Program-made: the position numbers and the translations under genes | The notes under the pieces: model-generated | What the model saw: the letters and a program-made list of their open reading frames with translations, nothing else | Database searches by the model: none | Told to the model about the DNA's origin: nothing | DNA from: a virus | DNA: 45,469 nt | Strand: one strand, 5' to 3' | UHGV virus genome: UHGV-0206691 | Part shown: positions 40 through 14,822 of the stretch, piece after piece | Layout of the letters: the number at the start of each line of letters is the position of its first letter | Position numbering within the stretch: the first letter of the stretch is position 1

Positions 40-333
40 TTATTTGTGTCTCCAGATGTATTGTCGTCTCTGTGGTTTCGTCGGGATATCATCGTACCCC
101 AGCGATTTCCAGTAATTAAACAACCGATTAGCGATAGCGGCCCGTTCCTGTGTTTTAAACTCACCGAGATTCACGGCCTTCCCGTTCTGGAATCCACATG
201 CGCGGATAGCTTTGCGTCTGGCCTGAATCTCTGGGTACAGCGCGTTACGACGGCGCTTGTATATTCGGGTGTTAGTTCTCGGCGACAGCGGCGCAAGGCC
301 GCTTCGTTCCAGGATGTCGGTTGCGAGGCTCAT
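40..333 (-). CDS. hypothetical early protein (97 aa), last gene of leftward early operon
   Basis: ORF track; co-directional and 6 nt downstream of gene 340..804; basic, no recognisable motif. Confidence 0.4.
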   Translation of the reverse strand: MSLATDILERSGLAPLSPRTNTRIYKRRRNALYPEIQARRKAIRACGFQNGKAVNLGEFKTQERAAIANRLFNYWKSLGYDDIPTKPQRRQYIWRHK

Positions 334-339
334 TTTACA

Positions 340-804
340 TCACCCCACAACCCGGTATGCAATAATGTCAGAACCTCGTTCGCCGTTACATAACCACCAG
401 CGATAAATACCCGAATCTTCCTTATACGCGATGGTTCCGTCGCGGAATTTAACATCGACAAGCCTCCCAGGAACAGGGTTTTCACCTTCGAGCCATACTG
501 TCCACGCAGACTCCTTCCCGTCATGTTCCACCCCTTCCACGTGTGTAATTGACCCACAGTTCGCGCACTCAACGTAATCCGGGAACTGGTCTTTGTATTT
601 CTGTAACTCAGCGTTTACTTCTGCCAGTCTTGACACAAGCCCCTCTATTTCCGTGTCTGTAGTTGTTATGTAGTCCTGGAAATCATCATCCAGGTCCTTG
701 TAGTCTTCGTAACTTACCCAATCGCCTTCGTCATTCTTCACTAGCTCGTGATACGGCTGGTACGGGTTAGCGCCAACGTCTTTAAACTCATATCTCCGTA
801 CCAT
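340..804 (-). CDS. hypothetical protein, paralog A (coiled-coil N-terminus plus W-rich C-terminal domain)
   Basis: ORF track 340..876 trimmed to internal ATG (MVRRYEF) preceded by AGGAG; C-terminus WTVWLEGENPVPGRLVDVKFRDGT...DIIAYRVV resembles C-terminus of 1006..1506 product. Confidence 0.55.
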   Translation of the reverse strand: MVRRYEFKDVGANPYQPYHELVKNDEGDWVSYEDYKDLDDDFQDYITTTDTEIEGLVSRLAEVNAELQKYKDQFPDYVECANCGSITHVEGVEHDGKESAWTVWLEGENPVPGRLVDVKFRDGTIAYKEDSGIYRWWLCNGERGSDIIAYRVVG

Positions 805-805
805 G

Positions 806-1009
806 TTATTTCTCCTGTTTACCAAGTCGCTTAGGTGAGCAGATAGCGCGTACCTCTGAATCGTTGGGCTTGTCACCCTGAAACAGGAAGTGCGCGTTCT
901 CTGCGGCGCGTGCCGCTGACTGGCACGCCTCCATCGAGTAAAACGTTTCTGATGCCGCGAGTTGCATCTGGCCTGCGGACAGTACCCAGATAAAGAGGAT
1001 GCTGGTCAT
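806..1009 (-). CDS. small putative secreted protein (N-terminal signal-like segment, 2 Cys)
   Basis: ORF track 806..1024; likely start MTSILFIWVLSAGQMQLAAS overlapping upstream stop (ATGA); its stop sits between RBS and ATG of the next gene. Confidence 0.4.
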   Translation of the reverse strand: MTSILFIWVLSAGQMQLAASETFYSMEACQSAARAAENAHFLFQGDKPNDSEVRAICSPKRLGKQEK

Positions 1010-1506
1010 TTCTTTAACCCGCATTTAATGCACATACTTGAAAGCCCCGCACCATAAAATTGCCAATCATGCTCACACTCTGGCTTGACTACACGGTAGC
1101 GGGTAATGTCTCCACGCCATCCGCGATGGTCCCAGCGCAGCTCCCCCGCTACTCCAGGTTCGCATGCACTTGTCCCGTCACGCATCCTGATTTGTACAAT
1201 AGTATCTTTCGGCACCGGACACTCACCACCTTCCCACTTAACCCACGGCTCCGCGACCTGAGTGTCTTCTTTACGGCAACCGGATTGCTTCGACCCGTAC
1301 CCACCTTTGCGGATAAGTTTGTACGCCTCCACATCACCCGTAGCTTTAACCAGCGCCAGATGCAACTCCTTAATCTGCGCCGACGCATCACGTAACTGAT
1401 TCTTAAGTGACTGCACTTCATGCGCCAGGTCTTCGCACTGTTTGTTATTTACCTGCTGCCGTAGCTGGTCAATCAGGTACTCGAATACTTCGTTTTTGCT
1501 ACTCAT
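1006..1506 (-). CDS. hypothetical protein, paralog B (coiled-coil plus W-rich C-terminal domain)
   Basis: ORF track 1006..1608 trimmed to ATG (MSSKNEV) preceded by GGAGGAGACAGAAG; C-terminus WVKWEGGECPVPKDTIVQIRMRDGT...DITRYRVV. Confidence 0.55.
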   Translation of the reverse strand: MSSKNEVFEYLIDQLRQQVNNKQCEDLAHEVQSLKNQLRDASAQIKELHLALVKATGDVEAYKLIRKGGYGSKQSGCRKEDTQVAEPWVKWEGGECPVPKDTIVQIRMRDGTSACEPGVAGELRWDHRGWRGDITRYRVVKPECEHDWQFYGAGLSSMCIKCGLKK

Positions 1507-1717
1507 CTTCTGTCTCCTCCCCATCATATTCTTCGAATATAAAGTCATCGTCTGCGGATAGCGCCCATCGACCGTACCCCGTGTAGTAGACATCAAGTTC
1601 AGTGCCATTGTCGTCTATTATGTAGCAGCGACTTTCGTCGCCGTCTTCTTTGAGGCGGTAAAAGTCATTTTTAGTCAGCACCCAATAACCATCATAGGAT
1701 TTACATTCCAGGAACAT
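1499..1717 (-). CDS. hypothetical acidic protein (72 aa)
   Basis: ORF track 1499..1810 trimmed to ATG (MFLECKSYDG) preceded by GGAGACAGAAG. Confidence 0.45.
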   Translation of the reverse strand: MFLECKSYDGYWVLTKNDFYRLKEDGDESRCYIIDDNGTELDVYYTGYGRWALSADDDFIFEEYDGEETEDE

Positions 1718-1829
1718 CTTCTGTCTCCAGTTCATCGTAAACACGTTCATTGTCGCCATCGCATACGCAGCAAACTCGCAACTCAGCGTAAAGCTGTTCC
1801 ATTTTCTCAACCGCCAGGTACTTATACAT
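1701..1829 (-). CDS. small protein (42 aa) with CCVC motif
   Basis: own reading, below track size cut-off: ATG preceded by GAGAGGAGAGACAGAAG; stop overlaps next start. Confidence 0.3.
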   Translation of the reverse strand: MYKYLAVEKMEQLYAELRVCCVCDGDNERVYDELETEDVPGM

Positions 1830-1860
1830 CTTCTGTCTCTCCTCTCGTTTGTGTAAATGA

Positions 1861-1889
1861 ATAGTAGTCTATTCTATCACAGTGTGCAA
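1861..1889 (-). promoter_or_regulatory. early promoter, TTGCAC-N17-TACTAT class
   Basis: minus strand reads TTGCAC, 17-nt spacer, TACTAT, then TCA; AATAG-N4-CTATT inverted repeat overlaps -10; lies just upstream of gene 1701..1829. Confidence 0.5.
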
Positions 1890-1896
1890 GTAAATT

Positions 1897-2073
1897 TTAT
1901 TGGTGTTGCGAATTTACGTGATGGCACTTTCTACACTTATGCGTAACCGAGTCACCAAGGTACGAGATTAACTGTACCTGCTCGCTTCCGCAGTTGGTGC
2001 ATTTACGGTAACTACGGGCCGCGGCATCCCGCTTTTCAACAAACCCCATAAGTTTCTCAGTGAACGTTTTCAT
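1897..2073 (-). CDS. small zinc-ribbon protein (58 aa, CxxC...CxxC)
   Basis: own reading: MKTFTEKLMGF...CTNCGSEQ...HKCRKCHH; GGAGAT upstream of ATG. Confidence 0.35.
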   Translation of the reverse strand: MKTFTEKLMGFVEKRDAAARSYRKCTNCGSEQVQLISYLGDSVTHKCRKCHHVNSQHQ

Positions 2074-2197
2074 TGTTGCATCTCCTGCAATAGTCGCTTC
2101 GATTGTTGCGTTTGGTGAAATAGAACAAAAATGAGAAAAATGATACGCTGCTGTGTAGCAGCGTAAGTCACTCAGTAAAATCCCAAACTATTGAACA

Positions 2198-2383
2198 TCA
2201 CACTTCCGGCGGCTCAGGTAACGGCATCCAGTGCGTTATATCACCGCGATATAAACTCTTTGCTGGCCCCCAGTAGCCATCTGTATTAACACGCATAACC
2301 TCACAGCCATCAAAACCATCAGTTACAAGAACGTATTCATAAGGTTCCGGCATCCGCTCACTACACTTAATCCACTCTCCCAT
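2198..2383 (-). CDS. DUF551-like phage protein
   Basis: ORF track; C-terminal HWMPLPEPP motif, recalled as a DUF551 hallmark. Confidence 0.5.
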   Translation of the reverse strand: MGEWIKCSERMPEPYEYVLVTDGFDGCEVMRVNTDGYWGPAKSLYRGDITHWMPLPEPPEV

Positions 2384-2392
2384 AAATCACCC

Positions 2393-2530
2393 CTTATTCG
2401 CCACAGCTTGCACACCAGCTTTCCACGCCCGCCACGCGAGACGGGTCTTAACGTTCAGGTACTCTTTCTTCGGACCCTTGTTAACAGGCAGACCCTCGAC
2501 GACGGCCCACCGCTCGAATGCTTCTCTCAT
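2393..2530 (-). CDS. small hypothetical protein (45 aa)
   Basis: own reading MREAFERWAVVEGLP...; stop overlaps start of DUF551 gene. Confidence 0.3.
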
Positions 2531-2533
2531 AAC

Positions 2534-2755
2534 TTAGTCCTCACTTAATGCCTGAGTCGCTGCCAGGATGATAGCTGATAAACATTGCGCGCAAGGCTCT
2601 TGCCTGAATCCGTTTTCTACAGCATATAAGGCGTGTTGGGCATCCCGGAACAGCCATTCACCGTACGATGGGGTAGCTCGGCACCACGTTTCTACTTTAC
2701 TCGTCGGCAATTTAACCCCATCCAGATGGTCTACCTTTATTATGTGTTTTCTCAT
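2534..2755 (-). CDS. hypothetical protein (73 aa)
   Basis: ORF track 2534..2785 trimmed to ATG (MRKHIIKV) preceded by GGGGG. Confidence 0.4.
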   Translation of the reverse strand: MRKHIIKVDHLDGVKLPTSKVETWCRATPSYGEWLFRDAQHALYAVENGFRQEPCAQCLSAIILAATQALSED

Positions 2756-2815
2756 ACCAACCCCCACAACGCGTGCACCACACATACGGCGCTGACAATT
2801 AAAATGAACAGGTAA

Positions 2816-3055
2816 TTATTCACGGCAACCTCCCTCAGAGTCGTCGGCACGAGCATCATGATTCGATGCCGTTGTGAATAACGCTAGCCATCTCCAGGTA
2901 TAAACACACATACGTCCTTCATATACATCCTCATCAGTTACCCTGTAATCATCGCCATCATCTGAGGTAATGCACCCATCGCTACTTAGCACATAACTTT
3001 TTCCTTCTGTGAAGTAATCACATAGACTGGTTATACAAATTAATTCTTCCATCAC
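2816..3055 (-). CDS. hypothetical acidic Cys-containing protein
   Basis: ORF track; co-directional in early operon. Confidence 0.4.
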   Translation of the reverse strand: MMEELICITSLCDYFTEGKSYVLSSDGCITSDDGDDYRVTDEDVYEGRMCVYTWRWLALFTTASNHDARADDSEGGCRE

Positions 3056-3237
3056 TTCACCCCTTTGAATTTAAAATTGTTGCCGATGAGTTCTAAATCC
3101 CACTTGCGGAGTAACCCTTTACCAAACCCGGATACGCTATTAACCTCAACGAAACCGAACCACATTAACTTTGATTCTGTTACCGTAAATAAATTGCCTG
3201 TAAATTTATCCCTAACCAACTGACCCTTCTTAAACAT
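3052..3237 (-). CDS. hypothetical protein (61 aa), first gene of leftward early operon
   Basis: ORF track; AGGAG upstream; promoter 3272..3300 upstream. Confidence 0.45.
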   Translation of the reverse strand: MFKKGQLVRDKFTGNLFTVTESKLMWFGFVEVNSVSGFGKGLLRKWDLELIGNNFKFKGVK

Positions 3238-3271
3238 AACCCTAACTCCTCTGTCTCGTTCCGATAAGTGA

Positions 3272-3300
3272 ATAGTATCCTATTATGTTGGGGTGTGCAA
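3272..3300 (-). promoter_or_regulatory. early promoter, TTGCAC-N17-TACTAT class
   Basis: minus strand reads cTTGCACaccccaacataataggaTACTATtcactta; near-identical to the promoters at 26855, 36202 and 38070. Confidence 0.55.
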
Positions 3301-3746
3301 GAGATTCATTGAAAATGGTTACGTTGCCGTTGTGGATTCTTTCGTTTCTTGGAAGAGTACGCAACGCAGTGGGTGGGCGTTAGCCCACCCCAGCGGAGTG
3401 AAGTACTCTCAACAATGCTCACGGCAACTATAGAAACTTTTAATTATCAGATACTTAAGAGATATGCTGCCGATGAGAATAGAGCTTGCCCATGGCAACC
3501 GGAGATACTAAGGAAGGAAAGTTACGATAATTCATATGTTCAGTAATCTGCCGCTTAACACTTCGCTTGCGCTTTGGCGCAGCTGCGTTTCAAGCGGGTA
3601 TTACAAGGTGAACAGGAATCAAAGTAACTAAGATATAGAAGCACCTTAAACGAAGATTTTCATAATGTCAATAGGTGCAATTATGTTTGATTTCCCATTA
3701 TTCGCAATGTATGCTTGGTTCGTTAACTGATAATGAGGGTTTGAGA

Positions 3747-3917
3747 ATGACGCAGAATGAAGTAGCGGAGCGTATCGGGGTTACTCGCCGCACACTGAAT
3801 AACTGGTTAAAGAGTGGGAAGTTCCCGGATTGCTGTATTCGCATTATGGGCCGCCGTCAGCCAGGTACGTTTGACCCGGCGAAAGTGGAAGCGTGGATTA
3901 AGGAGAACGTGAAATGA
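3747..3917 (+). CDS. AlpA/excisionase-like HTH DNA-binding protein
   Basis: ORF track 3675..3917 trimmed to ATG (MTQNEVAERIGVTRRTLNNWLKSGKFP) with GAGGG upstream; HTH_17-like pattern. Confidence 0.55.
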   Translation: MTQNEVAERIGVTRRTLNNWLKSGKFPDCCIRIMGRRQPGTFDPAKVEAWIKENVK

Positions 3918-4147
3918 CCGAGTTTCAGTCGCGTGTATTTACGGCGGTCGTTTCATTAACACGTAAAAAAGGGTCTTGCAGTGTTATGGACTTGCGCCGT
4001 AGTTATTTTAGGTACTATAGTTCCGCCATTATTGAAGGGTCGTTGAGAGTGCTGGTTAAATCTGGTGTCGTGAAAAATGCTGGCGGGAAATATAGTGCTG
4101 TTGCTGAAGTTCGCGGAATGGCCGCTACTTTAGAAGACCTGGAATAA
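3914..4147 (+). CDS. hypothetical protein (77 aa)
   Basis: ORF track; start overlaps upstream stop (ATGA). Confidence 0.45.
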   Translation: MTEFQSRVFTAVVSLTRKKGSCSVMDLRRSYFRYYSSAIIEGSLRVLVKSGVVKNAGGKYSAVAEVRGMAATLEDLE

Positions 4148-4204
4148 AAGAAAGCCCCAGCGTTAGAGCGCCGAGGCCAAATTACTTGCTGAAGGAAATA
4201 CAAC

Positions 4205-6472
4205 ATGTCCGATGTAATTTTATCCTACTCGTGGTCACGTCGCAACGCGCGAGCAGAGAAAAAGGATATAAACGTCAGAACCACACACACGGCAACACTG
4301 GACGACCTGAAAGAGTTAATCCAGCCGCTCGATGCCGTTCGCGACGGAATTAATCCGAAGACTGCGCCAGGGTATATCACCGCCGCGTGTGACCAAACCC
4401 ACAGCACCGTAAAAGACCCGGAAACTGGCGACTTTAAGCAAGCGCGTAAAGGCTTTTTCTATCGCTGTGATGCGTCTGTAAGCAAATCGTCGCTGGCGTA
4501 TCTGGACTTCGACAGCGCAACACCGGAAGAGTATCAGGAAGCGGTGCGCCTGGTTAAGCGCAGCCGCCAGGCGATGTGCCTCTATACCACGGCATCCCAT
4601 ACCGACGAGTCGCCGCGCTTTCGCGTCGTCATGCCACTGGCCCGTCCGGTTGAGGGTGGTGACATCATCCGTGTTCGTCATGGGTTGCTGGAACACTTCT
4701 TCAAAGGCATGGGTGCGGACCGCAGCGGGTTCACTCTGTCCCAGCCGATGTACCTGCCGCCGGTTGGCTCTCAGGTTATCTGGTCGCGCCGCAACGACCT
4801 GATTGACCCGGAAGAACTGCTGGAAGGCATTCCCGCCGTTGACGTTAGCAGCGCATCGGATTACCAGATACCGGAAGAACTGCGCACTGCGTTTACTGAT
4901 GCGTTCGAAGCCCTGGCGTTCGAGTACGGCGGTATCATGACACCACGCGGCCTTAAGATGCCAGCTACACCAGAACACGCAGAAAACTACAGCGACCCGA
5001 CGCCGCGCCCGGACGACTTCCTGCTGTGCTTCCCGCGGGAGGGGTACGAAGCGCCGAACGTAACCATGATTCACGACACCGACATTACGGCAACCGAAGG
5101 CATGTCGCCGAAAGAGGTGTGGAAGTATGCGTGTGATGCGACCGGGCTGCCGTTCAGTGAAGTCGCTGAGGCTATAGGATGGGGTGCACGTGAATCTGTT
5201 TCATGCAGCCTCGACGACCTGGAAGACGACGAGGATCCAGGGGAGGACGAGCTGCCGGAGCCGGTAAAGGCTGACTTCGTCGTTGAAGGGTACATGCCGT
5301 CGGATTGTATCTGGGACATTGTCGGGGAGTCCGGCACGTACAAATCATTCTATACGCTGGGGGTGATGTACCTGAGCGCCGCCGGATACCGGTTTGCAGG
5401 CGCTGACACACAGCGTTGCCACCACTTCTATATTGACGGTGAAGGTGGCGCAGCTACACGCACCCGTATTGACGCGCTCGCGGCTAAATACGGCGTGGAA
5501 GGTAAAGATTATGTACACGTCATCGATATGGGTGAAGTAGGCAAACTTAAAAGCCTGATTAAGTTAATGCGCGAAACTGCTGGCGAAGAGCCAATCGGCA
5601 TGGTCGCGTTTGACACCCTCAACCAGACCCTGGCACTGACTATTGATAAGTTCGACGAGAACAGCTCATCAACGGCAATCGGCATGGGTAAAGTTATCGC
5701 CATCCTGAAAGAAGTGCGTGACGCGACTAAAGCCGCGGTAGGCGTTGTCCATCATACGCCGAAAGGCGGAAAGAAAGCCCGTGGCAGCGGGGCGTTGTAT
5801 GCTGGTGTCGACGTGGAACTGACAATCGAACGTGCCACCGACCGACAGATAAACGTATACCACTCGAAATTTAAGCACGGGCCTCAGCAGAAAACTGTCG
5901 GTATGGTGCTTGAGTCGGTACAGTTCCGCGAAGCGCCGCCGCCGAAAGAATACCGCGCGGTTGAGTTCCTGGGTAACACCGAGGAATACGGCGCAATCGT
6001 AAACCTGGACCTGCCAGAACCACACAAGGCGCTTGTACTGATGCCGTGGGGCTTTGAGCCGTTCAAGACTGACGAGGAGAAAGAGCGGGAAGAAGGGCTG
6101 ACAAAGGAAGGTAAAGAAAACGTACGTAAAACCGTAGAGAATGCCGTCAACAGTTCAGAGGCCACGATACTGGCAGCGTTTGAACTGGCAGAAGGAACCT
6201 ACAACGGCAACGAAGGTATCACAGTAGCCGCAGCGAATAAGCTCGCACAGTCAGACCCCAACGCAAAGGCGTTTAACTCCAAAGAAGCCATAGAACGCGG
6301 AAAGATTAAGAAAATGGTTGAGGCCGGGTATCTTGTACCGGGAACAGATGAAAACAATCAGATAATCCAGGGCCGTTACAGACTGAACACCCGAATAACG
6401 GATAACAAGATTCCGAAGACAATATACGAACCGAATGAAATGCTGGCGGTGACAGAGGAGGATTTAGAATGA
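4205..6472 (+). CDS. bifunctional primase-helicase (AEP primase-polymerase N-terminus, RecA-like/DnaB-like ATPase C-terminus)
   Basis: ORF track; YLDFD catalytic-type motif in N-terminal half; Walker A-like GESGTYKS and Walker B-like VAFD; good RBS GAAGGAAA. Confidence 0.75.
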   Translation: MSDVILSYSWSRRNARAEKKDINVRTTHTATLDDLKELIQPLDAVRDGINPKTAPGYITAACDQTHSTVKDPETGDFKQARKGFFYRCDASVSKSSLAYLDFDSATPEEYQEAVRLVKRSRQAMCLYTTASHTDESPRFRVVMPLARPVEGGDIIRVRHGLLEHFFKGMGADRSGFTLSQPMYLPPVGSQVIWSRRNDLIDPEELLEGIPAVDVSSASDYQIPEELRTAFTDAFEALAFEYGGIMTPRGLKMPATPEHAENYSDPTPRPDDFLLCFPREGYEAPNVTMIHDTDITATEGMSPKEVWKYACDATGLPFSEVAEAIGWGARESVSCSLDDLEDDEDPGEDELPEPVKADFVVEGYMPSDCIWDIVGESGTYKSFYTLGVMYLSAAGYRFAGADTQRCHHFYIDGEGGAATRTRIDALAAKYGVEGKDYVHVIDMGEVGKLKSLIKLMRETAGEEPIGMVAFDTLNQTLALTIDKFDENSSSTAIGMGKVIAILKEVRDATKAAVGVVHHTPKGGKKARGSGALYAGVDVELTIERATDRQINVYHSKFKHGPQQKTVGMVLESVQFREAPPPKEYRAVEFLGNTEEYGAIVNLDLPEPHKALVLMPWGFEPFKTDEEKEREEGLTKEGKENVRKTVENAVNSSEATILAAFELAEGTYNGNEGITVAAANKLAQSDPNAKAFNSKEAIERGKIKKMVEAGYLVPGTDENNQIIQGRYRLNTRITDNKIPKTIYEPNEMLAVTEEDLE

Positions 6473-6783
6473 ATATTTACGATTTTATAGATAACCCGTT
6501 TAAAGCAGTGAAGGCGGGGTACCGCCCGTCATACCTGACATGTGTTTCCGCGGTAAGCGGCCACTGGTGGACTTTTTGCGTGTACACAGCAGGGATTTTT
6601 GCGGAGTTTAAAGACGTTTTAGATATGACACTGGCGGAGATTATAAAGTGCCTTTTCAAGTTGATTATCGCGATAGCTATTGTGGTAAGTTTTCCTGTAA
6701 GTGTGTGGTTTCTTGCCTGGATTCAGTACCTGAACGTGCAGCACACGATTAAGAATTTGGAAGAACTCGATAAGTTGCAATAA
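6469..6783 (+). CDS. small membrane protein
   Basis: ORF track; ATGA overlap with primase-helicase; hydrophobic segments IAIAIVVSFPVSVWFLAWI. Confidence 0.45.
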   Translation: MNIYDFIDNPFKAVKAGYRPSYLTCVSAVSGHWWTFCVYTAGIFAEFKDVLDMTLAEIIKCLFKLIIAIAIVVSFPVSVWFLAWIQYLNVQHTIKNLEELDKLQ

Positions 6784-6786
6784 AAA

Positions 6787-6808
6787 GAAAGGGGCATTAA
6801 GCCCCTTC
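6787..6808. terminator. hairpin terminator between convergent genes
   Basis: aaaGGGGCattaaGCCCCttc stem-loop; overlaps the last codons of the XRE gene. Confidence 0.5.
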
Positions 6809-7012
6809 ACCCAACGCCAGCCACTTGGCGTCTACTTCCAGCACTTCCGCCAGTTTAAACAGCGTTGCCGGGCGGACGTCCTGAGTTACTCCGAGTGCAA
6901 GCTGGTTAATCGCGCCCTGGGAAACGCCAGCCAGGACCGCCAGACGGCGCTGGGAGATGCCGAGTTCTTTGCGGCGTTGTTCTACGCGTATGCCTAGTTC
7001 AGATGGTTGCAT
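6797..7012 (-). CDS. XRE-family (Cro/CI-type) HTH transcriptional regulator
   Basis: ORF track; LGISQRRLAVLAGVSQGAINQLALG helix-turn-helix; AAGGAG RBS; divergent from gene 7137. Confidence 0.7.
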   Translation of the reverse strand: MQPSELGIRVEQRRKELGISQRRLAVLAGVSQGAINQLALGVTQDVRPATLFKLAEVLEVDAKWLALGEGA

Positions 7013-7076
7013 GTCAATTACTCCTTAGTCAGTTGATATGTGAATAGTACCATATTAATTATTTTAGAAAAGCCCA

Positions 7077-7105
7077 TTGACATGTGAATAGTTCGCTATT
7101 ATAGT
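7077..7105 (+). promoter_or_regulatory. sigma70-type promoter TTGACA-N17-TATAGT with AATAG-N4-CTATT inverted repeat in spacer
   Basis: ttgacaTGTGAATAGTTCGCTATtatagt, 31 nt upstream of gene 7137 with GAGAGGAGAG RBS. Confidence 0.6.
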
Positions 7106-7136
7106 TAGCCCATACCAAACGAGAGGAGAGAAACAA

Positions 7137-7658
7137 ATGTTAGACCAATTCTTAAAATTACTTGAACGTTTCGTAGTTGCACATGAACTGATTGCCGCGA
7201 ATAGCGTGAAACCACAAAACGGCAAATCAGTAGGTGAATTAACCGTTGATGTTGCGGTAACGGGAGTAGAAACAGTTAAAAAAGAACTGGCTAAAGCACT
7301 TGAAGAAGTCGAGAAAGCAAAAGAAATCCCGGTTGAAGGCAAAGACATCGTCGACACCAAACCTGCGGAAGAAGAGAAGCCTAAACGCAAGCCGCGTAAA
7401 GCTAAAGTAGAGGAGCCGGCGCTAGAGCCGGAAGAAGAGAAAGAAGAAGTCGATTACCAGTCTCTGCGTGACCAGATTCAGGCTATCGACGATGCGATTA
7501 ACGAAGGTCCGAGCGATGCCGCGTGCGATGATTCCGATGAACTGCTGGAAGAGTTCACCGGTAAGAAGATGAAGATTGCCGCGATTAAAGACGAAGACCT
7601 GGCTGAGTACCTGGAGCGCCTGACAGCAATCAAGAACAAGTATTTCGAAGAAGAATAA
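7137..7658 (+). CDS. highly acidic hypothetical protein (173 aa)
   Basis: ORF track; runs of E/D (EEEKPKRKPRKAKVEEPALEPEEEKEEVDY, DDSDELLEEF); first gene behind a strong promoter. Confidence 0.55.
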   Translation: MLDQFLKLLERFVVAHELIAANSVKPQNGKSVGELTVDVAVTGVETVKKELAKALEEVEKAKEIPVEGKDIVDTKPAEEEKPKRKPRKAKVEEPALEPEEEKEEVDYQSLRDQIQAIDDAINEGPSDAACDDSDELLEEFTGKKMKIAAIKDEDLAEYLERLTAIKNKYFEEE

Positions 7659-7665
7659 CTATCCT

Positions 7666-7684
7666 GCGGCCTTCGGGCCGCTTT
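7666..7684 (+). terminator. intrinsic terminator
   Basis: GCGGCCttcgGGCCGC followed by TTT directly after stop of gene 7137..7658. Confidence 0.55.
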
Positions 7685-7701
7685 AACTGAGGGTCGGAAT
7701 T

Positions 7702-8091
7702 ATGAAATACGAAGATATGAGCGATTTTGAAATTAATTGTGCAGTGGCAGTCGCATTAGATTTGAATGAACATTTGTTCTTCCCGTCGGGCGTAGAAGAC
7801 TTTGATAGTGATACCGATGATTCAGACATGGGGCCGGTGTGGCAAACAAGAATGCCGTTTGTTAAAGGTTTTAGACCTTCTAATGGTAATTTATTTAACC
7901 CGTGCAACAACATAGACATAGCGTGGCAAATTATAACCCGCAATCATATATCAATTGAATGTGTTACGGTAAACCGGCATACAGTTACATATCGCGCGTA
8001 TCACTCTGCATCTTTCACCAAAAGTACGCACGAAAACCCCCTACGCGCCGCTATGATTGTCTTTCTGAAAATGCGGGAGAAGGCGCAATGA
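7702..8091 (+). CDS. hypothetical protein (129 aa)
   Basis: ORF track; GAGGG RBS. Confidence 0.5.
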   Translation: MKYEDMSDFEINCAVAVALDLNEHLFFPSGVEDFDSDTDDSDMGPVWQTRMPFVKGFRPSNGNLFNPCNNIDIAWQIITRNHISIECVTVNRHTVTYRAYHSASFTKSTHENPLRAAMIVFLKMREKAQ

Positions 8092-8360
8092 TTTACCAAC
8101 TCTACCGCGCCGTGGACAGGCGGGATAACACCGAGGCGCTATGGCTGCTGCGCGCGCCGTCCGGTGCACACCAGATGGAAGAGATGGCGTACTTAGGCAA
8201 AGTACCGCGGCCTAAAGGTATCGGCCGTCACGTGTCGCAGATTAAGCGCACGACTTTCGCCAAACCTGACTTTTATGTCTTCGAGTCGATGTATGGGTGG
8301 GCTATGCACTGCGACCATAAGACACGACATTTAATTGACCAGTGGGAGAGCAGGGTATGA
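8088..8360 (+). CDS. hypothetical protein (about 90 aa)
   Basis: ORF track 7959..8360 trimmed to ATG (MIYQLYRAVDRR) with GGGAGAAGG RBS and ATGA overlap with upstream stop. Confidence 0.45.
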   Translation: MIYQLYRAVDRRDNTEALWLLRAPSGAHQMEEMAYLGKVPRPKGIGRHVSQIKRTTFAKPDFYVFESMYGWAMHCDHKTRHLIDQWESRV

Positions 8361-8704
8361 CTGATAAATGGTGGCTTAATTTGCGCAGCGGCGACAAAGT
8401 TTACACCGTCGGCGACCGCAGAAAGAACAGCGGTGTAGCTACTGTGCTACAAAACAGCAAAAAGTACATACACATTGCGCATGAAGCTCGCGCACTCCGC
8501 GTGAATAAATCGTCTGGCAGGCTTGAGGATTACCCGAAAACCTTAATATATAAAAGTGAAAAGCATCACATTGACGCTGTTGACGCAAGACGTAAGTTCG
8601 CAGGAATGCTGCAACAGTTAAGCGACTTACATCGCGATGATTCTTTCATTCCCACAGAAGAACAGCTACAGGCATTAAACTTGTATTTGGAGAGTTTACG
8701 ATGA
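8357..8704 (+). CDS. hypothetical protein (about 115 aa)
   Basis: ORF track 8342..8704 trimmed to ATG (MTDKWWLNL), ATGA overlap with upstream gene. Confidence 0.45.
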   Translation: MTDKWWLNLRSGDKVYTVGDRRKNSGVATVLQNSKKYIHIAHEARALRVNKSSGRLEDYPKTLIYKSEKHHIDAVDARRKFAGMLQQLSDLHRDDSFIPTEEQLQALNLYLESLR

Positions 8705-9990
8705 TTCTTAAAGAACGCGGTGGAAATAACGATGTGCACGCCTTACTGTCGCCATCTGGCGCTAAGAAGTGGCTAAGCTGCGCCGCATCACTGGCCTGTG
8801 AAAAAGATATTCCTAACACGTCCGGTAAAGCAGCCGTTACAGGGACCGCGTGCCACACTATTGCTGAGGTCCATCTCAACGCCTATATCCGCGGAACCGC
8901 GCTACCGTTAGAGCGTGAAGTCGGCGCTTACGTGCTGGATGAAGGTAAAGGCCAGATTAAGGCGCTAATCAGCCCGATGAAAGGAGCGGTACTGATTACG
9001 GCGGATATGATTGAGCAGGTGCGCAAGTACACCGACTACTGCAAAGCGATTATCGACGTGGCGACTTACGCCAAGCTCGAGATGCGCGTCAATCTTACTG
9101 AAGTATTGCATCCGGGGTACAAAGTACCTGCTGAGAGTGAAGAAGGTAAGGAGGATGGTTTAGAGACATTCGGAACAGCCGACTTAGTGGCGGTTATAGA
9201 AGGCTTTACGGGTGAAAGTAACTCCGCGATGCTCATTATCGGCGACCTTAAAACAGGACGACATCGTGTCGAAGCGAAAGAAAACAAGCAGCTTATGCTT
9301 TACGCGCTCGGTGTTTATCGCCGACTAAAAAGACGTTATAACATAACAATTGTTCGTCTGGTCATCTTCCAGCCGTATGCCGGCGGTGCGTCGGAGTGGG
9401 ATATCTCGGTTGAAGGTCTTGAACTGTTTGCTAAGTTCGCACAGAAACGCGCGCTGTTAGCACTCGATGCGTATTTCCGTGGTAAGAAGAACCTGAAAGC
9501 GTCCGACTTTAAGCCGTCAGTCGATGGTTGTCAGTGGTGTCGTTTCTCGGAGCAGTGCGCCGCGCGTACAAAGACGGTTAACGCGGTACTGGCAGAAGAA
9601 CTGGAGGACGACTTTGCGCTGGAACTGACGCCGGAGCAACTCGTAACTGAGTATGAGAAGTTGCCGCTGTTGCGCCAGCACATCGACAAGGTTGAGAAAG
9701 CTATGGCCGCCGCTTTGCATTCCGGTAAGAAAGTGCCGGGATATAAGCTGGTTGAAGGTCGTCCTGGAAATCGTGCGTGGAAAGATGCCGATGCGATTGA
9801 AGTGTCACACGGCGACATTCTCAAAAAAGAGGTATTGATGTCCCCTACGGAGGCAGCAAAAGTTCTTTCGGCGGATGAGATGGCCGCGCTTGAGCCGTTT
9901 ATTACCCGTAAGCCTGGCGCACCATGTGTCGCAACGGCAGACGACAAACGTCCTGAGTGGAATCAGGTTAGTGAAGAAGATTTAGAATAA
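8701..9990 (+). CDS. PD-(D/E)XK-type nuclease, DUF2800-like (Cas4/RecB-like fold with C-terminal Cys cluster)
   Basis: ORF track; N-terminal SPSGAKKWLSCAASLAC, central GDLKTGRH, C-terminal CQWCRFSEQC; sits next to SSB-like gene as in phage replication modules. Confidence 0.6.
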   Translation: MILKERGGNNDVHALLSPSGAKKWLSCAASLACEKDIPNTSGKAAVTGTACHTIAEVHLNAYIRGTALPLEREVGAYVLDEGKGQIKALISPMKGAVLITADMIEQVRKYTDYCKAIIDVATYAKLEMRVNLTEVLHPGYKVPAESEEGKEDGLETFGTADLVAVIEGFTGESNSAMLIIGDLKTGRHRVEAKENKQLMLYALGVYRRLKRRYNITIVRLVIFQPYAGGASEWDISVEGLELFAKFAQKRALLALDAYFRGKKNLKASDFKPSVDGCQWCRFSEQCAARTKTVNAVLAEELEDDFALELTPEQLVTEYEKLPLLRQHIDKVEKAMAAALHSGKKVPGYKLVEGRPGNRAWKDADAIEVSHGDILKKEVLMSPTEAAKVLSADEMAALEPFITRKPGAPCVATADDKRPEWNQVSEEDLE

Positions 9991-9994
9991 AGTG

Positions 9995-10023
9995 TTGACA
10001 CCTGAATAGATAGCTATTATATT
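9995..10023 (+). promoter_or_regulatory. sigma70-type promoter TTGACA-N17-TATATT with AATAG-N4-CTATT inverted repeat in spacer
   Basis: ttgacaCCTGAATAGATAGCTATtatatt upstream of gene 10084. Confidence 0.6.
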
Positions 10024-10083
10024 TCTAATCACTGGCCGGGCAGCTCCCGGAGTAAACGAAACTGAAAACTGAGGAATCGAGAT

Positions 10084-10722
10084 ATGGGTATCAAAGTTAA
10101 ACTGAGCAACGTGCGTATCGGATGGGTAGACGTTTATAAGAAAGCAGCGGACCGTGTAAACAGTCAGGGTCAACAAGTAGAGGGACAATACCAGCTTACC
10201 GCGTATCTGGATAAAGACGACCCGCAAATTGATAAAATTGAAGACGCTGTAACTGAGGTTATGACCGAAGCATTAGGTAGCGCTTCTGCCGCCGAAAAAT
10301 GGATGTCAAAAAACTTCGGCTTCGGGAACCATGCGGATAAATGCGCATTCCGCGACCTCGCGCAGCGCGACTCACCGATTGAAGGGCTAGAGGAAGGCTT
10401 GTATTTCATGGCTAAGAGCCGTAAGCAGCCTATGATTGCAACTTCTGAGGGTGAGGTGCAGTGTCAACGCGGCGGGCGTGTAGTTAAGGGCCTTACCGAA
10501 GCGGGTGACGATGTAGAAGGTAAGGAAGTTTATTCTGGTTGTTACGCTAATATCGTAGTTGATGTGTATTGGTACTCAACTTATAAAAACCTCGGTGTAG
10601 AACTCCTCGGTGTTCGCTTTAAGGACGACGGCGAAGCATTCGGCGGTGCCGGAGCTACCGTGGACCTTAACGACCTTGAGGATGACGAACCAGCACCGCG
10701 CCGCGAACGTCGCCGCCGCTAA
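10084..10722 (+). CDS. ssDNA-binding protein, DUF2815-like
   Basis: ORF track; size, acidic C-terminal tail (DLNDLEDDEPAP) and position after DUF2800-like nuclease. Confidence 0.55.
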   Translation: MGIKVKLSNVRIGWVDVYKKAADRVNSQGQQVEGQYQLTAYLDKDDPQIDKIEDAVTEVMTEALGSASAAEKWMSKNFGFGNHADKCAFRDLAQRDSPIEGLEEGLYFMAKSRKQPMIATSEGEVQCQRGGRVVKGLTEAGDDVEGKEVYSGCYANIVVDVYWYSTYKNLGVELLGVRFKDDGEAFGGAGATVDLNDLEDDEPAPRRERRRR

Positions 10723-10741
10723 TATCTGAATAAATTTAACT

Positions 10742-10766
10742 AAGGCCCTTCATTGGGCCTTTTTAC
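10742..10766 (+). terminator. intrinsic terminator
   Basis: AAGGCCCttcattGGGCCTTTTT after stop of gene 10084..10722. Confidence 0.6.
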
Positions 10767-10781
10767 TAAGGGTCGAAAACA

Positions 10782-11060
10782 ATGGCAGCGGAACTTAAGA
10801 GATACAGACGCATCACATACTGCAAATTTTGTAAGGCAGAAGGAAAAAAAGTTAGAGCAATTTGGATGACTAAATACCCTCCAGCTTACGGTGTACGAGA
10901 CTGGTATAAACACTATGCATGCGAGGAGCATAAACATTTAATAGAAGACACAGACCCAGACAGGACTTGGGCAGAAATCATAGAACGCGGTAAAAACAAG
11001 AAACAAGAACGCGACGACTATCTCACAGAAGCAGACTATCAGACGTGGTACAGACTATGA
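10782..11060 (+). CDS. hypothetical zinc-binding protein (CxxC...C..H)
   Basis: ORF track; YCKFCKAEGKK ... YACEEHKH. Confidence 0.45.
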   Translation: MAAELKRYRRITYCKFCKAEGKKVRAIWMTKYPPAYGVRDWYKHYACEEHKHLIEDTDPDRTWAEIIERGKNKKQERDDYLTEADYQTWYRL

Positions 11061-13309
11061 ACACATTGCTTTACTTAGACTTTGAAACATTCTCCGAAGC
11101 CGATTTAAAGAAAGTCGGCTCCTACGCTTACGCCGAACACCCGTCAACCGAAGTGCTAATCTGTACCTATGCTTTTGACGACGAGCCTGTGCAGGTATGG
11201 GATTGCACCGACGGCAGCGACATGCCGGGCGATTTGCACCGCGCACTGCGCCGCCTGGTTAAGCCGAACAGCCGCATCAAGATGGTGTGGCACAACGGTG
11301 GACTTTTCGACAGGCTCATCATGAAGCATTGCTGGGGCTTTGATATTCCGGTAAGCAACACCATTGATACGATGATTTGGGCGTTTCGTCACGCGCTTCC
11401 GGGTTCACTCGATGCGCTGTGTGAAGTGCTGGGCGTATCCGCGGACAACGCGAAAGATAAACGCGGCAAGGCGCTGATTCAGCGTTTTTCTAAACCTACT
11501 CCGAAGAACTACAAAATCCGCCGTTACACTGCTGAAACTCACCCGGACGAGTGGGCACTGTTTATCAAGTACGCCGTGAGCGACATCACCGCGATGCGTG
11601 AAGTCTTTCATAAGCTGCCGCGATGGGGTAACTCCGAGTTCGAAGACCGTGTACTGGAACTGGACCAGTTAATCAATGACCGTGGGTTTAAGGTTGACGT
11701 TGCACTGGCAGAAGCCGCGATTGAAGCCGTGGAGAAACACAAAGCGCAGTTACAGGAAGAGGCCCAACGCAAATACGGCGGATCGCTTACTGGGAAGGAC
11801 TTTCTGCCTATTCTGCGTGAACTGGCACCTGCGCACCGCATCCACAACGCACAGAAGTCTACGCTTAACGACCTGCTGGCGGACGATGATTTACCAGACG
11901 ACGCACGCACGATTATCGAAATGCGCCTCGGGGCCGCGTCTACAGCGTCAACGAAATATAACCCGCTACTGTTGGGCCGCTCGTCAGACGACCGCCGTCG
12001 CGGTTGCATTCAGTACGGCGGAGCCAAGCGTACATTACGATTTGCCGGTAAAGGCTTTCAGCCGCAGAACCTGGCGCGCGGGTACTATCACGACGACCCG
12101 AAGAATAAAAAGAAAAAAGTACGTTATGACTGGATGTCAGAGAAGGACTGGTGGAGAGTAACACACCCATTGTCCTACGGAATCGACCTGTTGTTTAAAG
12201 GCCGTGCGCACCGCCGTTTTGATGTAGCCAAACTGACAGCATCGACGGTTCGTAGCTGCATCATACCGGAAGCCGGGTATAAGTTTGTCGTCGCCGATTA
12301 CTCTAACGTTGAAGGCCGTGGTTTGGCGTGGCTGGCTGGAGAAGAAACCGCGCTCGATACGTTCCGCGCCGGGCTGGATATTTACTGCGTAACCGCGGGT
12401 AAGATGTTCGGAATGGACCCCGATTACATTCTCGAAAGCCGTAGTGACCTACGCCAGATTGGTAAAGCCTGTGAATTGGGCCTCGGCTATGCTGGAGGTG
12501 TTGGTGCTTTCGTTCAGTTTGCTAAAAACCTCGGCTTAAACCTTGTTGATATGGCAAAAACAATGGATGGGACTTTCCCCGACCACATCTGGGCGGCTAC
12601 TGCACGGGGCTATGAGTGGGCGCGTATACAGGAGGCAAAGCGACCGCCGCGTCCCGGTGAAAAGGACGACAGACCGTCGTATATTCTTGATAAGAAAGTG
12701 TGGCGTACCTGTGACGCTATCAAGCGCATGTGGCGCGAGTCTCACCCGGAAACCGTAGCGTTCTGGCGAGATATTGAAGACGCAGCTATGGCGGCTATCC
12801 GCAATCCGGGCAAAGAGTTCACCGCAGGACCACGCGGCGTTAAGTTTTCGCGTAACGTAGAGACAGACAACAACGGCAACAAAGTCGCTGGCTGGTGGTT
12901 GCGCATGACGTTGCCATCGGGTCGCGTTATGTCATACCCTGGCGTCGGGTTAAGCGTGTCGAAAGAGACAGACGAAGATGGAAAGGTGTCTACTAACGTA
13001 CGCATCAAGTACCAGGGGGAGAACCAGTTAACCCGTCAGTGGGGCTTCCAGTACACCTACTCCGGTAAACTGGTGGAAAACTGCACTCAGGCGCTGTGCC
13101 GTGATTTGCTGGCTAATGCCCTGCTTAACGTCGAAGCAAACGGTTACCCGATTGTACTTCATGTCCACGATGAGATTATCTGCGAGACACCAGATACCCC
13201 CGAGTACACGGTGGCTGAACTTGAGCGGTTGATGTGCGAATTACCGGAATGGGCCGAGGGGTTCCCTCTTGTAGCGGAAGGCGCGGAGATGAAGCGCTAT
13301 GCTAAGTAA
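11045..13309 (+). CDS. family-A DNA polymerase with 3'-5' exonuclease domain
   Basis: ORF track; N-terminal exo motif LYLDFETFS; palm motifs DYSNVEGRGLAWLAGE, GKACELGLGYAGGVGAF, VLHVHDEIICE. Confidence 0.9.
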   Translation: MVQTMNTLLYLDFETFSEADLKKVGSYAYAEHPSTEVLICTYAFDDEPVQVWDCTDGSDMPGDLHRALRRLVKPNSRIKMVWHNGGLFDRLIMKHCWGFDIPVSNTIDTMIWAFRHALPGSLDALCEVLGVSADNAKDKRGKALIQRFSKPTPKNYKIRRYTAETHPDEWALFIKYAVSDITAMREVFHKLPRWGNSEFEDRVLELDQLINDRGFKVDVALAEAAIEAVEKHKAQLQEEAQRKYGGSLTGKDFLPILRELAPAHRIHNAQKSTLNDLLADDDLPDDARTIIEMRLGAASTASTKYNPLLLGRSSDDRRRGCIQYGGAKRTLRFAGKGFQPQNLARGYYHDDPKNKKKKVRYDWMSEKDWWRVTHPLSYGIDLLFKGRAHRRFDVAKLTASTVRSCIIPEAGYKFVVADYSNVEGRGLAWLAGEETALDTFRAGLDIYCVTAGKMFGMDPDYILESRSDLRQIGKACELGLGYAGGVGAFVQFAKNLGLNLVDMAKTMDGTFPDHIWAATARGYEWARIQEAKRPPRPGEKDDRPSYILDKKVWRTCDAIKRMWRESHPETVAFWRDIEDAAMAAIRNPGKEFTAGPRGVKFSRNVETDNNGNKVAGWWLRMTLPSGRVMSYPGVGLSVSKETDEDGKVSTNVRIKYQGENQLTRQWGFQYTYSGKLVENCTQALCRDLLANALLNVEANGYPIVLHVHDEIICETPDTPEYTVAELERLMCELPEWAEGFPLVAEGAEMKRYAK

Positions 13310-13430
13310 ACTGATTATCGCGGTACTGGCGGGATTTGCTGCCGGTGTCTACTGTCACGAGGGCCAATACGGCATGATTGTCGCCGTACTGGGCATGTTC
13401 ATCGCAATTTATCTGTGGGTGCTGGAATGA
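13299..13430 (+). CDS. small membrane protein (43 aa)
   Basis: own reading MLSKLIIAVLAGFAAGVYCHEGQYGMIVAVLGMFIAIYLWVLE; start overlaps polymerase 3' end. Confidence 0.3.
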   Translation: MLSKLIIAVLAGFAAGVYCHEGQYGMIVAVLGMFIAIYLWVLE

Positions 13431-13512
13431 AAATATACTGGTTCTATGAAGAAGACTGCCGAATCTGTCCGCGCTGCGGGATTGAACATACGAAACGGGA
13501 GGGGTGCATATT

Positions 13513-13800
13513 ATGAGTACGCCTGAGGGCAAGATTCAGAAATACGCAAAAGACAGATTCGAGGCCCTGGGGGGCCTCGTACGAAAATTGTCGTACGAAA
13601 ATAGAGTGGGGGCCCCCGACCTGCTGGTAATCCTCCCCGGCGGCATCATCTGGTTCGTAGAGGTTAAGAAAGACGGAAGCACGAAGCCTGACCCGCATCA
13701 GTTACGGGAGCACGAGCGGATGCGTAAACGCGGCGCGAATGTTTTTGTCGTTGGTTCGTTTAAACAGGTTGACGACCTAATAGCGAACTATTATAGTTAG
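13513..13800 (+). CDS. VRR-NUC domain nuclease
   Basis: ORF track 13504..13800 trimmed to ATG after GGGAGGGG; PDLLVILPGGIIWFVEVKK PD-(D/E)XK core. Confidence 0.65.
   Translation: MSTPEGKIQKYAKDRFEALGGLVRKLSYENRVGAPDLLVILPGGIIWFVEVKKDGSTKPDPHQLREHERMRKRGANVFVVGSFKQVDDLIANYYS
13769..13797 (+). promoter_or_regulatory. sigma70-type promoter TTGACG-N17-TATAGT with AATAG-N4-CTATT inverted repeat in spacer
   Basis: ttgacgACCTAATAGCGAACTATtatagt inside the 3' end of the VRR-NUC gene, upstream of gene 13831. Confidence 0.55.
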
Positions 13801-13830
13801 TCATACGCCAACAATATAAGGAATTGAGAA

Positions 13831-14022
13831 ATGAAACACGAATATGACCGCAAACCAGCACGTGATATCGTACCGGGCGACATGATTTTCAACGTTAAGA
13901 CCCGCCAGCCGGTCGCCGTTGATACGGTGTTCGTCGAGTCGAACGGTAAACTGGTTATCGAAGATGTAACTGGTAACGTTACGGCGTTCGGGCGTAAAGA
14001 GCTGGTTTTGGTGGCGAAATGA
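13831..14022 (+). CDS. hypothetical protein (63 aa)
   Basis: ORF track; AAGGAATTGAG RBS; stop overlaps methyltransferase start. Confidence 0.45.
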   Translation: MKHEYDRKPARDIVPGDMIFNVKTRQPVAVDTVFVESNGKLVIEDVTGNVTAFGRKELVLVAK

Positions 14023-14822
14023 ACTATTACAACGAATGGGATAAAGGTGCAGCCGCGTGGCTACGTGAATTAATAAAACAGGGCCACATACCTTTTGGGG
14101 TTGTAGATGAAAGAAGCATTACCGAAGTTAAGCCAGAAGACCTTGACGGGTTCACCCAGTGTCATTTTTTCGCTGGTATCGGCGGCTGGCCTCTCGCGCT
14201 CAGACTTGCGGGAGTTTCGGAAGATACGCCTTGCTGGACGGGAAGCCCGCCTTGCCAACCGTTTAGCGCGGCGGGAAAGCAACTCGGACAGTTCGACCCG
14301 AGACACCTCGCGCCAGTCTTCCTCGACCTCATCAGCGAGTGCCGCCCTCCAGTCCTCTTTGGGGAGCAGGTTGCGCCAGCAATTGCAAAATCGTGGATGT
14401 GCGATTTACAAAATCGCCTGGAAGGAGAAGACTACGCCGTCGGGTTTGCCGTACTCCCAGCTTGTAGCGTCGGTGCCCCGCACAAACGCGACAGACTGTT
14501 CTTCGGCGCGTACAACCTGGCCGAGTCCTTGTGCGCAGAACGGGGCCGTGAACGGCTACACGGATTGGGAAAAAGTAATCAAACGCAAGGAAGCAGGACG
14601 GCAGCAGAACCTACAGGACGTTGTGATTCTGGCGGTTTCTGGTCAGATGCTGATTGGCTCGGATGCAGGGACGGAAAATTCAGGCCAGTTGAACCCGGCA
14701 CATTCCCGCTGGCTAATGGGATACCCGCCAGAGTGGGACGATTGCGCGGTTATGGCAATGCCATCGTCCCGCAAGTAGCCGCTGAATTTATAAAGGCATT
14801 CATGGGGGCGGTAAATGAGTAA
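14019..14822 (+). CDS. compact DNA (cytosine-5)-methyltransferase
   Basis: ORF track; motif I FFAGIGG, motif IV GSPPCQPFSAAGK, ENV-like LFGEQV, RxR-like HKRDRLFF, C-terminal GNAIVPQV. Confidence 0.65.
   Translation: MNYYNEWDKGAAAWLRELIKQGHIPFGVVDERSITEVKPEDLDGFTQCHFFAGIGGWPLALRLAGVSEDTPCWTGSPPCQPFSAAGKQLGQFDPRHLAPVFLDLISECRPPVLFGEQVAPAIAKSWMCDLQNRLEGEDYAVGFAVLPACSVGAPHKRDRLFFGAYNLAESLCAERGRERLHGLGKSNQTQGSRTAAEPTGRCDSGGFWSDADWLGCRDGKFRPVEPGTFPLANGIPARVGRLRGYGNAIVPQVAAEFIKAFMGAVNE

Follow-up and report, generated by a model that had tools for sequence, protein, structure and literature searches.

In phage 434, Cro and the repressor bind 14-bp dyad operators (ACAA-N6-TTGT) at OR and OL, in which the outer bases are conserved and the variable centre is not contacted. 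Cro proteins of lambda and P22 turn down early promoters during lytic growth. Controller (C) proteins of restriction-modification systems bind dyads located in their own promoters, and proteins of the HTH_17/excisionase type usually bind as monomers or to direct repeats, not to 14-bp dyads. The element recognized by AlpA is located between the -35 and -10 hexamers and is a non-palindromic 6-bp sequence bound by a monomer; true AlpA exceeds 140 aa, possesses an RNA-exit-channel segment and requires a downstream -10-like pause site (PMC9371919).

Phages of the genera Kagunavirus and Jerseyvirus are popular for therapy, typing, synthetic biology and biocontrol, and their gene regulation is unstudied. 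In the literature searched, we found no binding, footprint, transcription-start or reporter experiments on the regulator or the sites described below. An RNA-seq study of one Kagunavirus (K1B4) reports an HTH gene, not necessarily a homologue of the XRE gene considered here, among only four early genes, and its data give gene-level timing only (PMC12645636). For fBC-Eco01, PHIRE revealed seven "Phage RNAP promoters" (PP1-PP7) with the consensus tgAATAGTa-ccTATTat-T; the excerpts of that article dealing with these promoters mention neither a dyad nor an operator (PMC9825357). Along this line, excerpts of the Golestan description report seven PHIRE promoters (PMC7203180).

The stretch of DNA analysed here (the window, 45,469 nucleotides) is an essentially complete 45.5-kb genome of a Kagunavirus-like virulent siphovirus of the subfamily Guernseyvirinae. 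It shares approximately 87-90% identity over the aligned parts with phages such as Bas72, BEU35 and fEg-Eco19, and its gene order is that of the annotated Bas72 genome. For comparison, we used five whole genomes and 80 loci around XRE homologues taken from viral contigs; loci of this set are denoted by L and a number. Neither an RNA polymerase nor a sigma factor, an integrase or a CI-type repressor was found in Bas72 or the other annotated relatives retrieved, nor by Pfam scans of about 40 ORFs of the window. Specifically, a CI-type repressor with a C-terminal S24 peptidase/dimerisation domain and an integrase are absent from the annotations of Bas72, Jerseyvirus SP-101 and Cornellvirus VSiA. 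A lambdoid immunity region with a bistable CI/Cro switch was therefore rejected for the annotated relatives and the roughly 40 window ORFs. Two further ORFs for DNA-binding proteins were noted, a NinH-like one at 42181-42417 (minus strand), which scores just under the Pfam cut-off, and a homing-endonuclease-like one with HNH_3 and AP2 domains at 16236-16721 (plus strand), at the end of the replication module.

The motif AATAGNNNNCTATT, with half-sites AATAG and CTATT separated by four nucleotides (N4), has eight exact matches in the window, starting at 1860, 3271, 7087, 10005, 13779, 26872, 36218 and 38086. Shuffled sequences gave an expectation of 0.03, and none of the shuffles reached eight. 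With up to one mismatch allowed, the number rises to 12 (1.18 expected). The two half-sites pair at N4 only, each other spacing from 0 to 12 giving at most one match in the window. All eight exact sites and three of the four one-mismatch sites lie in promoter cores that are directly followed by a ribosome binding site and a start codon; the fourth, at 19769 inside a tail gene, looks like a chance match. Unanchored genome-wide tallies of palindromes were uninformative, the signal being swamped by GC-rich coding palindromes. The promoters concerned and two genes for candidate binders are the following.

1860-1889, minus strand: class A promoter, TTGCAC (1889-1884)-N17-TACTAT (1866-1861); putative operator at 1860-1873, centre near -12.5
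3271-3300, minus strand: class A promoter, TTGCAC (3300-3295)-N17-TACTAT (3277-3272); putative operator at 3271-3284
3747-3917, plus strand: AlpA-like HTH_17 gene, 56 aa (Pfam HTH_17), the less likely binder
6797-7012, minus strand: XRE/HTH_3 gene, 71 aa, 434-Cro-like (Pfam, phmmer, fold), candidate repressor
7043-7056, minus strand: one-mismatch putative operator AATAT-GGTA-CTATT in the XRE gene's own promoter; -10 TACTAT at 7049-7044
7077-7105, plus strand: class B promoter P_R, TTGACA-N17-TATAGT; putative operator AATAGTTCGCTATT at 7087-7100, centre near -18.5
9995-10023, plus strand: class B promoter, TTGACA-N17-TATATT; putative operator AATAGATAGCTATT at 10005-10018
13769-13797, plus strand: class B promoter, TTGACG-N17-TATAGT; putative operator AATAGCGAACTATT at 13779-13792
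26856-26885, plus strand: class A promoter, TTGCGC-N17-TACTAT; putative operator AATAGGGTACTATT at 26872-26885
36107-36149, minus strand: conserved leftward promoter, TTGACT (36135-36130)-N17-TAAGCT (36112-36107), TGn extended -10
36202-36231, plus strand: class A promoter, TTGCAG-N17-TACTAT; putative operator at 36218-36231; predicted to drive island gene 36259-36492
38070-38099, plus strand: class A promoter, TTGCAG-N17-TACTAT; putative operator at 38086-38099; predicted to drive island gene 38130-38459
44229-44262, minus strand: class C promoter, TTGACT (44257-44252)-N17-TATATT (44234-44229); one-mismatch putative operator over the -35

Direct reading of the sequence confirmed the original prediction that 7077-7105 (TTGACA-TGTG AATAG TTCG CTAT-TATAGT), 9995-10023 (TTGACA-CCTG AATAG ATAG CTAT-TATATT) and 13769-13797 (TTGACG-ACCT AATAG CGAA CTAT-TATAGT) are near-consensus sigma70 promoters with the dyad in the 17-nt spacer. 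AATAG occupies spacer positions 5-9, and CTATT extends from spacer position 14 into the -10 hexamer, its final T being the first T of the latter. N4 is unconstrained in this class. Compared with TTGACA and TATAAT at 16-18 nt, these promoters score 11, 11 and 10 of 12 at 17-nt spacing, and they are the three best sigma70-type matches within window positions 1-17000. P_R is predicted to drive 7137-7658 and the exonuclease genes; Pfam reveals here a 173-aa protein of unknown function and a DUF2800/PD-(D/E)XK exonuclease. The second promoter is predicted to drive the genes of an Enc34-type ssDNA-binding protein (10084-10722) and the DNA polymerase. The third is located within the final 30 nt of ORF 13504-13800 and is predicted to drive 13831-16721 with a methyltransferase and an SNF2 helicase. 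According to Pfam, the replication module also comprises the Enc34-type protein, a family A DNA polymerase, the methyltransferase and the SNF2 helicase. A hairpin, CCGGG-CAGCU-CCCGG (10036-10050), was observed in the 5' leader of the gene for the Enc34-type protein. It is kept in Cornellvirus and occurs with different sequence in Serratia phage Tsm2; its folding energy by itself is not significant, and it may be a translational operator.

That the half-sites recur at the presumed early-class promoters was likewise borne out. The other five exact sites belong to promoters of the form TTGCA[C/G]/TTGCGC-N17-TACTAT, two on the minus and three on the plus strand, which we summarize as class A (TTGCAN-17-TACTAT). 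Their N4 always ends in TA, and TA together with CTAT makes up the -10, so that the right half-site of the 1860 operator, for instance, lies inside this hexamer. The promoter at 3271-3300 is predicted to drive leftward small genes from 3237 onwards. The three plus-strand promoters (operators at 26872, 36218 and 38086) lead into short rightward islands inside the leftward structural genes, and three class A copies have about 24 identical bases in common; the promoter at 26856-26885 is predicted to drive the island 26900-28731, embedded in leftward tail genes.

A terminator family of the form AAGGCCCC-N4-GGGGCCTT has members at 10742-10761, 16860-16879, 28736-28755, 36497-36517 and 38464-38483. 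The last three close the rightward islands and the copy at 16860-16879 closes the replication module, while the copy at 10742-10761, a variant with a 6-nt loop, lies between genes inside this module. With a class A promoter on one side and such a terminator on the other, the islands are built like moron-type cassettes.

The three one-mismatch sites in promoter cores are all on the minus strand. In the promoter of the XRE gene, AATAT in place of AATAG yields a TGn extended -10 (TGG, 7052-7050), and a good -35 is lacking; this site is conserved in more than 30 Kagunavirus loci. The Jerseyvirus orthologue of this promoter reads TTGCAC-17-TACTAT and thus has a normal -35. The other two sites span a -35, namely AATAG-TTGA-CTTTT (36140-36127) in the leftward promoter TTGACT-17-TGcTAAGCT, and ACTAG-TTGA-CTATT (44262-44249) in the class C promoter, where a lone CCTATT abuts the -10. 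In Kagunavirus and Jerseyvirus, the -35-overlapping operator carries one mismatch in 77 of 77 instances, with the differing half-site depending on the genus. A mismatch-free copy does not occur there, even though TTGACT could be accommodated in an intact AATAG-TTGA-CTATT.

The promoter at 36107-36149 overlaps the only perfect 16-bp palindrome of the window, AACTATTCGAATAGTT at 36134-36149, in which the half-sites had been noted in inverted order. The palindrome is present, and about 34 contigs of Kagunavirus and Jerseyvirus phages carry it without a single substitution. As a second arrangement of the operator, however, it did not hold: the left half of AATAG-TTGA-CTTTT doubles as its right arm, and half-sites in everted order could not be recognized by a symmetric dimer in the way the operator is. 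It is better read as overlapping the upstream edge of the one-mismatch operator over the leftward -35, a reading that leaves the invariance of its left arm unexplained.

The surroundings of this palindrome are unusually conserved, both in the TATTCC/GGAATA repeats upstream and over about 190 nt downstream. The repeats (36150-36190), two direct TATTCC and an inverted GGAATA just upstream of the palindrome, are conserved in both genera and might form a second binding-site array. Downstream, on the minus strand (35908-36135), the conserved promoter TTGACT-17-TGcTAAGCT precedes a unit of roughly 190 nt, which encodes a basic ORF of 36 aa (35978-36088, MNKRPRRGQ...) and ends at the terminator 35927-35908. 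This unit is near-invariant between Kagunavirus and Jerseyvirus, and a diverged second copy is located upstream of the AlpA-like gene, or of its replacement, in the Kagunaviruses L009, L016, L018, L022, L040 and L042. Its product could be a micro-protein or a small RNA. No Rfam family matches the conserved region around 36100, palindrome included, and RNA folding is not significant (fold z-score of -1.8 for the 190-nt unit). An RNA role of the palindrome or of this region was dismissed on these grounds and because transcription is predicted to start only downstream of the operators.

At the level of relatives, each Kagunavirus and Jerseyvirus locus contains exact copies of the motif, between two and eight per locus. 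Across about 50 genomes of the two genera, the half-sites are almost invariant, while N4, the adjoining spacer and even the -35 vary. Positional entropies were calculated for 26-27 unique orthologues each of the promoters at 7077 and 9995 from about 45 genomes, with the alignments anchored on the flanks and not on the motif. The left half-site gave 0.00 and 0.12 bit, respectively, and the right half-site 0.05 bit; N4 gave 0.71 and 1.06 bit, the -35 hexamer 0.82 and 0.42 bit, and the four nucleotides after the -35 0.8 bit. We know of no sequence requirement of sigma70 RNA polymerase at the spacer position of the left half-site. Its invariance thus calls for a reader other than this polymerase.

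The relatives included, the dyad takes four registers with respect to the -10. Its centre is at about -18.5 in class B and at about -12.5 in Kagunavirus class A; the two further registers have it at about -15.5 and, where the dyad covers the -35, at about -33.5. The -15.5 register, with TATTAT or TATTGT as -10, is found in Jerseyvirus (13836), Cornellvirus, L053 and L054. The registers are shifted by 3, 6 and 21 bp. This variety fits steric occlusion and does not fit an activator or polymerase contact on a fixed face.

Subfamily-wide, promoters show an excess of the generic form AWTAN-N4-NTAWT, with 15 matches in the window (2.7 expected), 9-10 in Cornellvirus (2-2.5 expected) and 4 in L053 (0.6 expected). 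Kagunavirus, Jerseyvirus and Tsm2 prefer the half-site AATAG and the L053-type phages AATAC, whereas Cornellvirus mostly has ATTAG, with hybrids; its motif is ATTAG-N4-(C/G)TAAT and its sites are heterogeneous. In the loci L003/L004 (Cornellvirus), L053, L054 and L069, the dyad is built alike but prefers ATTAG or AATAC, and hybrid operators are frequent. Since the preference differs although Jerseyvirus and Cornellvirus both infect Salmonella, the binder is expected to be encoded by the phage rather than by the host.

The gene at 6797-7012 was proposed to encode an XRE regulator, and the product does match HTH_3 (PF01381) over residues 11-65 with 47.2 bits at a cut-off of 23. It forms a stand-alone leftward unit with a terminator at 6808-6788, divergent to P_R, and its own operator copy is 44 bp away from that of P_R. 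The best sequence match in the PDB is 434 Cro (phmmer, 1zug/3cro, E 2e-6, residues 6-68 versus 4-64). The AF2 model has five helices at a pLDDT of 81.7, and its top Foldseek match is 2cro (TM 0.74/0.81, 42% identity). The protein hence presents the single-domain five-helix fold, the size of about 70 aa and the homology of a 434 Cro-type protein, and the motif presents the features of the corresponding operators, being a dyad of about 14 bp that overlaps the promoter, its outer half-sites conserved and its centre variable. All six XRE homologues aligned have a Gln at the position of the first Gln in the 434 "QQ" pair, as do all related XRE helices compared; nor does the outermost A of the half-site vary. 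A clean switch of specificity between XRE recognition helix and half-site across the lineages was only partly borne out. The AATAC of L053-type phages and the predominant ATTAG of Cornellvirus are in line with it, but the Cornellvirus sites are heterogeneous, and AATAG is common to Kagunavirus and Jerseyvirus despite different helices. The correlation of lineage half-site and recognition helix is suggestive only.

We conclude, with a probability of roughly 65%, that AATAG-N4-CTATT is the operator of a phage-encoded dimeric HTH repressor, most likely the XRE protein. The original prediction of one repressor acting on several operons through a shared operator is the best-supported reading in view of the enrichment, the N4 spacing, the location in promoter cores, the conservation, the registers and the adjacent 434-Cro-like gene; the repression itself, as well as binding, the identity of the binder and the timing, we infer from sequence and predicted fold.

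Among the competing explanations, the published label takes the motif for a promoter-specificity element with a positive reader, which would be a sigma-like factor or an RNA polymerase of the phage, or else an activator redirecting the host polymerase. PHIRE indeed picks identical 20-mers in Kagunaviruses, presented as PP1-PP7 in the excerpts on fBC-Eco01 (PMC9825357), and the motif is found on nearly all phage promoters. A gene for such a polymerase or sigma factor, however, is missing from annotated Bas72 and from the roughly 40 window ORFs scanned with Pfam, the large ones included, and from the annotated relatives in the case of the polymerase. The motif-bearing promoters moreover already possess good sigma70 hexamers at 17-nt spacing, and a dyad that overlaps the hexamers in four registers shifted by 3, 6 and 21 bp is incompatible with a fixed activating contact. 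We therefore consider a positively read element improbable and regard the motif as already published, mislabelled as "phage RNAP promoters". A host transcription factor or nucleoid protein exploited by the phage is more improbable still. The dependence of the phage on the host transcription machinery is all that speaks for it, direct support being absent, whereas the preferred half-site differs between Jerseyvirus and Cornellvirus on the same host genus and is identical between phages of E. coli and of Salmonella. To our knowledge, no consensus of an enterobacterial regulator matches AATAG-N4-CTATT.

It is just as hard to believe that the repeats only derive from a single promoter cassette, multiplied through duplication or recombination, and that the dyad is functionless. 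The at least 24 identical bases of the three class A copies and the common terminator family of the islands do suggest mobile cassettes, and part of the repetition could stem from duplication, but the class B sites have only half-sites and hexamers in common, with different N4 and flanks. In the orthologous sites of about 50 genomes, substitutions affect N4, the spacer and the -35 and not the left half-site, and the half-site spacing is strictly N4. Another view accepts the operator and assigns it to the AlpA-like protein, whose gene at 3747-3917 had been pointed out as a second candidate and does match HTH_17 in Pfam. Precisely the two genera in which the motif has its strict AATAG-N4-CTATT form possess this protein, and it is about 85% identical between Kagunavirus and Jerseyvirus, as opposed to about 50% for XRE, in which four of seven recognition-helix positions differ in spite of the identical operator; taken alone, this conservation favours the AlpA-like protein. 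Its operon, with the primase-helicase, is preceded by TTGATT (3687-3692)-N17-TATGCT (3710-3715), the only conserved phage promoter without an operator. Expression from this promoter would speak for the AlpA-like protein; the absence of an operator from its own promoter, on the other hand, speaks against it. In some phages, the operators persist although the gene for the AlpA-like protein is missing. The whole Tsm2 genome lacks it and has two exact sites, on promoters; in Kagunavirus L018, other genes replace it and six exact sites are kept; operator variants are found on promoters of Cornellvirus and other lineages without the protein. Furthermore, no homologue of solved structure was found, and a 14-bp dyad would be ill-suited to the binding habit of HTH_17/excisionase-type proteins. 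The AlpA-like protein thus appears a poor candidate, and XRE is clearly to be preferred to it as the binder. A loading site for an AlpA-type antiterminator was also rejected, given a 56-aa protein with HTH_17 only, a dyad instead of a monomer site, and no pause element.

If XRE is the repressor, the circuit may be pictured as follows. Host sigma70 RNA polymerase would read all phage promoters, and the operator would overlap nearly every promoter core, between the hexamers in class B (centre about -18.5), across the -10 in class A (about -12.5) and across the -35 in two leftward promoters (about -33.5), so that a bound dimer would exclude the polymerase. XRE would be made from its own extended -10 promoter, where the weakened one-mismatch operator would allow negative autoregulation. 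The eight perfect operators would control the replication-module promoters, the rightward islands directed head-on into the late genes, and two leftward early promoters; imperfect operators would remain for XRE's own promoter and the two leftward promoters upstream of the morphogenesis genes. Such a set would result in a graded shut-off by a single protein. This hierarchy of perfect and imperfect operators is speculation; equal repression of every promoter, in turn, would block late gene expression, which counts against the repressor reading. All in all, we regard the circuit as sound but fairly ordinary phage control. It is rather doubtful that one 71-aa Cro-like protein with graded operators makes up the whole temporal programme of a "strictly virulent" phage lacking an RNA polymerase, a sigma factor and any known late activator and, beyond this, silences the genome for a dormant or carrier state or for superinfection immunity, which the presence of an operator on nearly every promoter would permit.

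The resulting map of about 11 sites and one probable regulator corrects the published misannotation as "phage RNAP promoters" and suggests that a small virulent siphovirus could time its genes by means of the host polymerase and one repressor. A capacity for genome-wide silencing, if true, would bear on the assumption that these phages are strictly lytic. The pair of operator and XRE could serve as a compact orthogonal repression module for engineering, and the half-site variants of Cornellvirus, L053, L054 and L069 are material for a specificity study of the XRE subfamily.

Compared with known systems, the motif is identical to the PHIRE promoters of fBC-Eco01 at equivalent loci, for example TGAATAGTACCCTATTATAT and TGAATAGTACCATATTAATT, although that article, in the excerpts considered, credits a phage RNA polymerase which these phages do not encode (PMC9825357). 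With the AlpA-binding element of AlpA and Q-type antiterminator loading, the motif has the location between -35 and -10 in common; the difference is that a protein of more than 140 aa and a 6-bp non-palindromic monomer element there (PMC9371919) stand against a 56-aa protein and a dyad here. When superposed on the XRE model, the controller proteins C.BclI and C.AhdI fit about equally well as 434 Cro. However, no restriction gene is present here, the target promoters are many, and the sites lie over the -10 or the spacer, not at an activating position upstream of the -35 as in C-boxes. With Cro of lambda and P22, XRE would share the role of a small early repressor that lowers host-polymerase early promoters and its own region; the operator here additionally marks internal promoters of the replication module and the moron-like islands, and a weakened version of it is present at leftward promoters ahead of morphogenesis genes. 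The closest agreement is with 434. XRE and 434 Cro each comprise 71 aa and fold into one HTH_3 domain of five helices, 434 Cro being the best match in sequence and fold; the putative operator, like that of 434, is a 14-bp dyad that overlaps core promoter elements and in which the outer bases are conserved and the centre is free; and in both cases the gene is divergent from the promoter that its protein would regulate. In contrast to 434, the half-site sequence differs, at least 11 operators are dispersed genome-wide instead of two tripartite clusters, and the phage is virulent and devoid of a CI partner, an integrase and a lysogeny module. As judged from sequence, XRE and its operator would thus be of the Cro/434 repressor-operator kind, with unusually genome-wide targets in a virulent phage.
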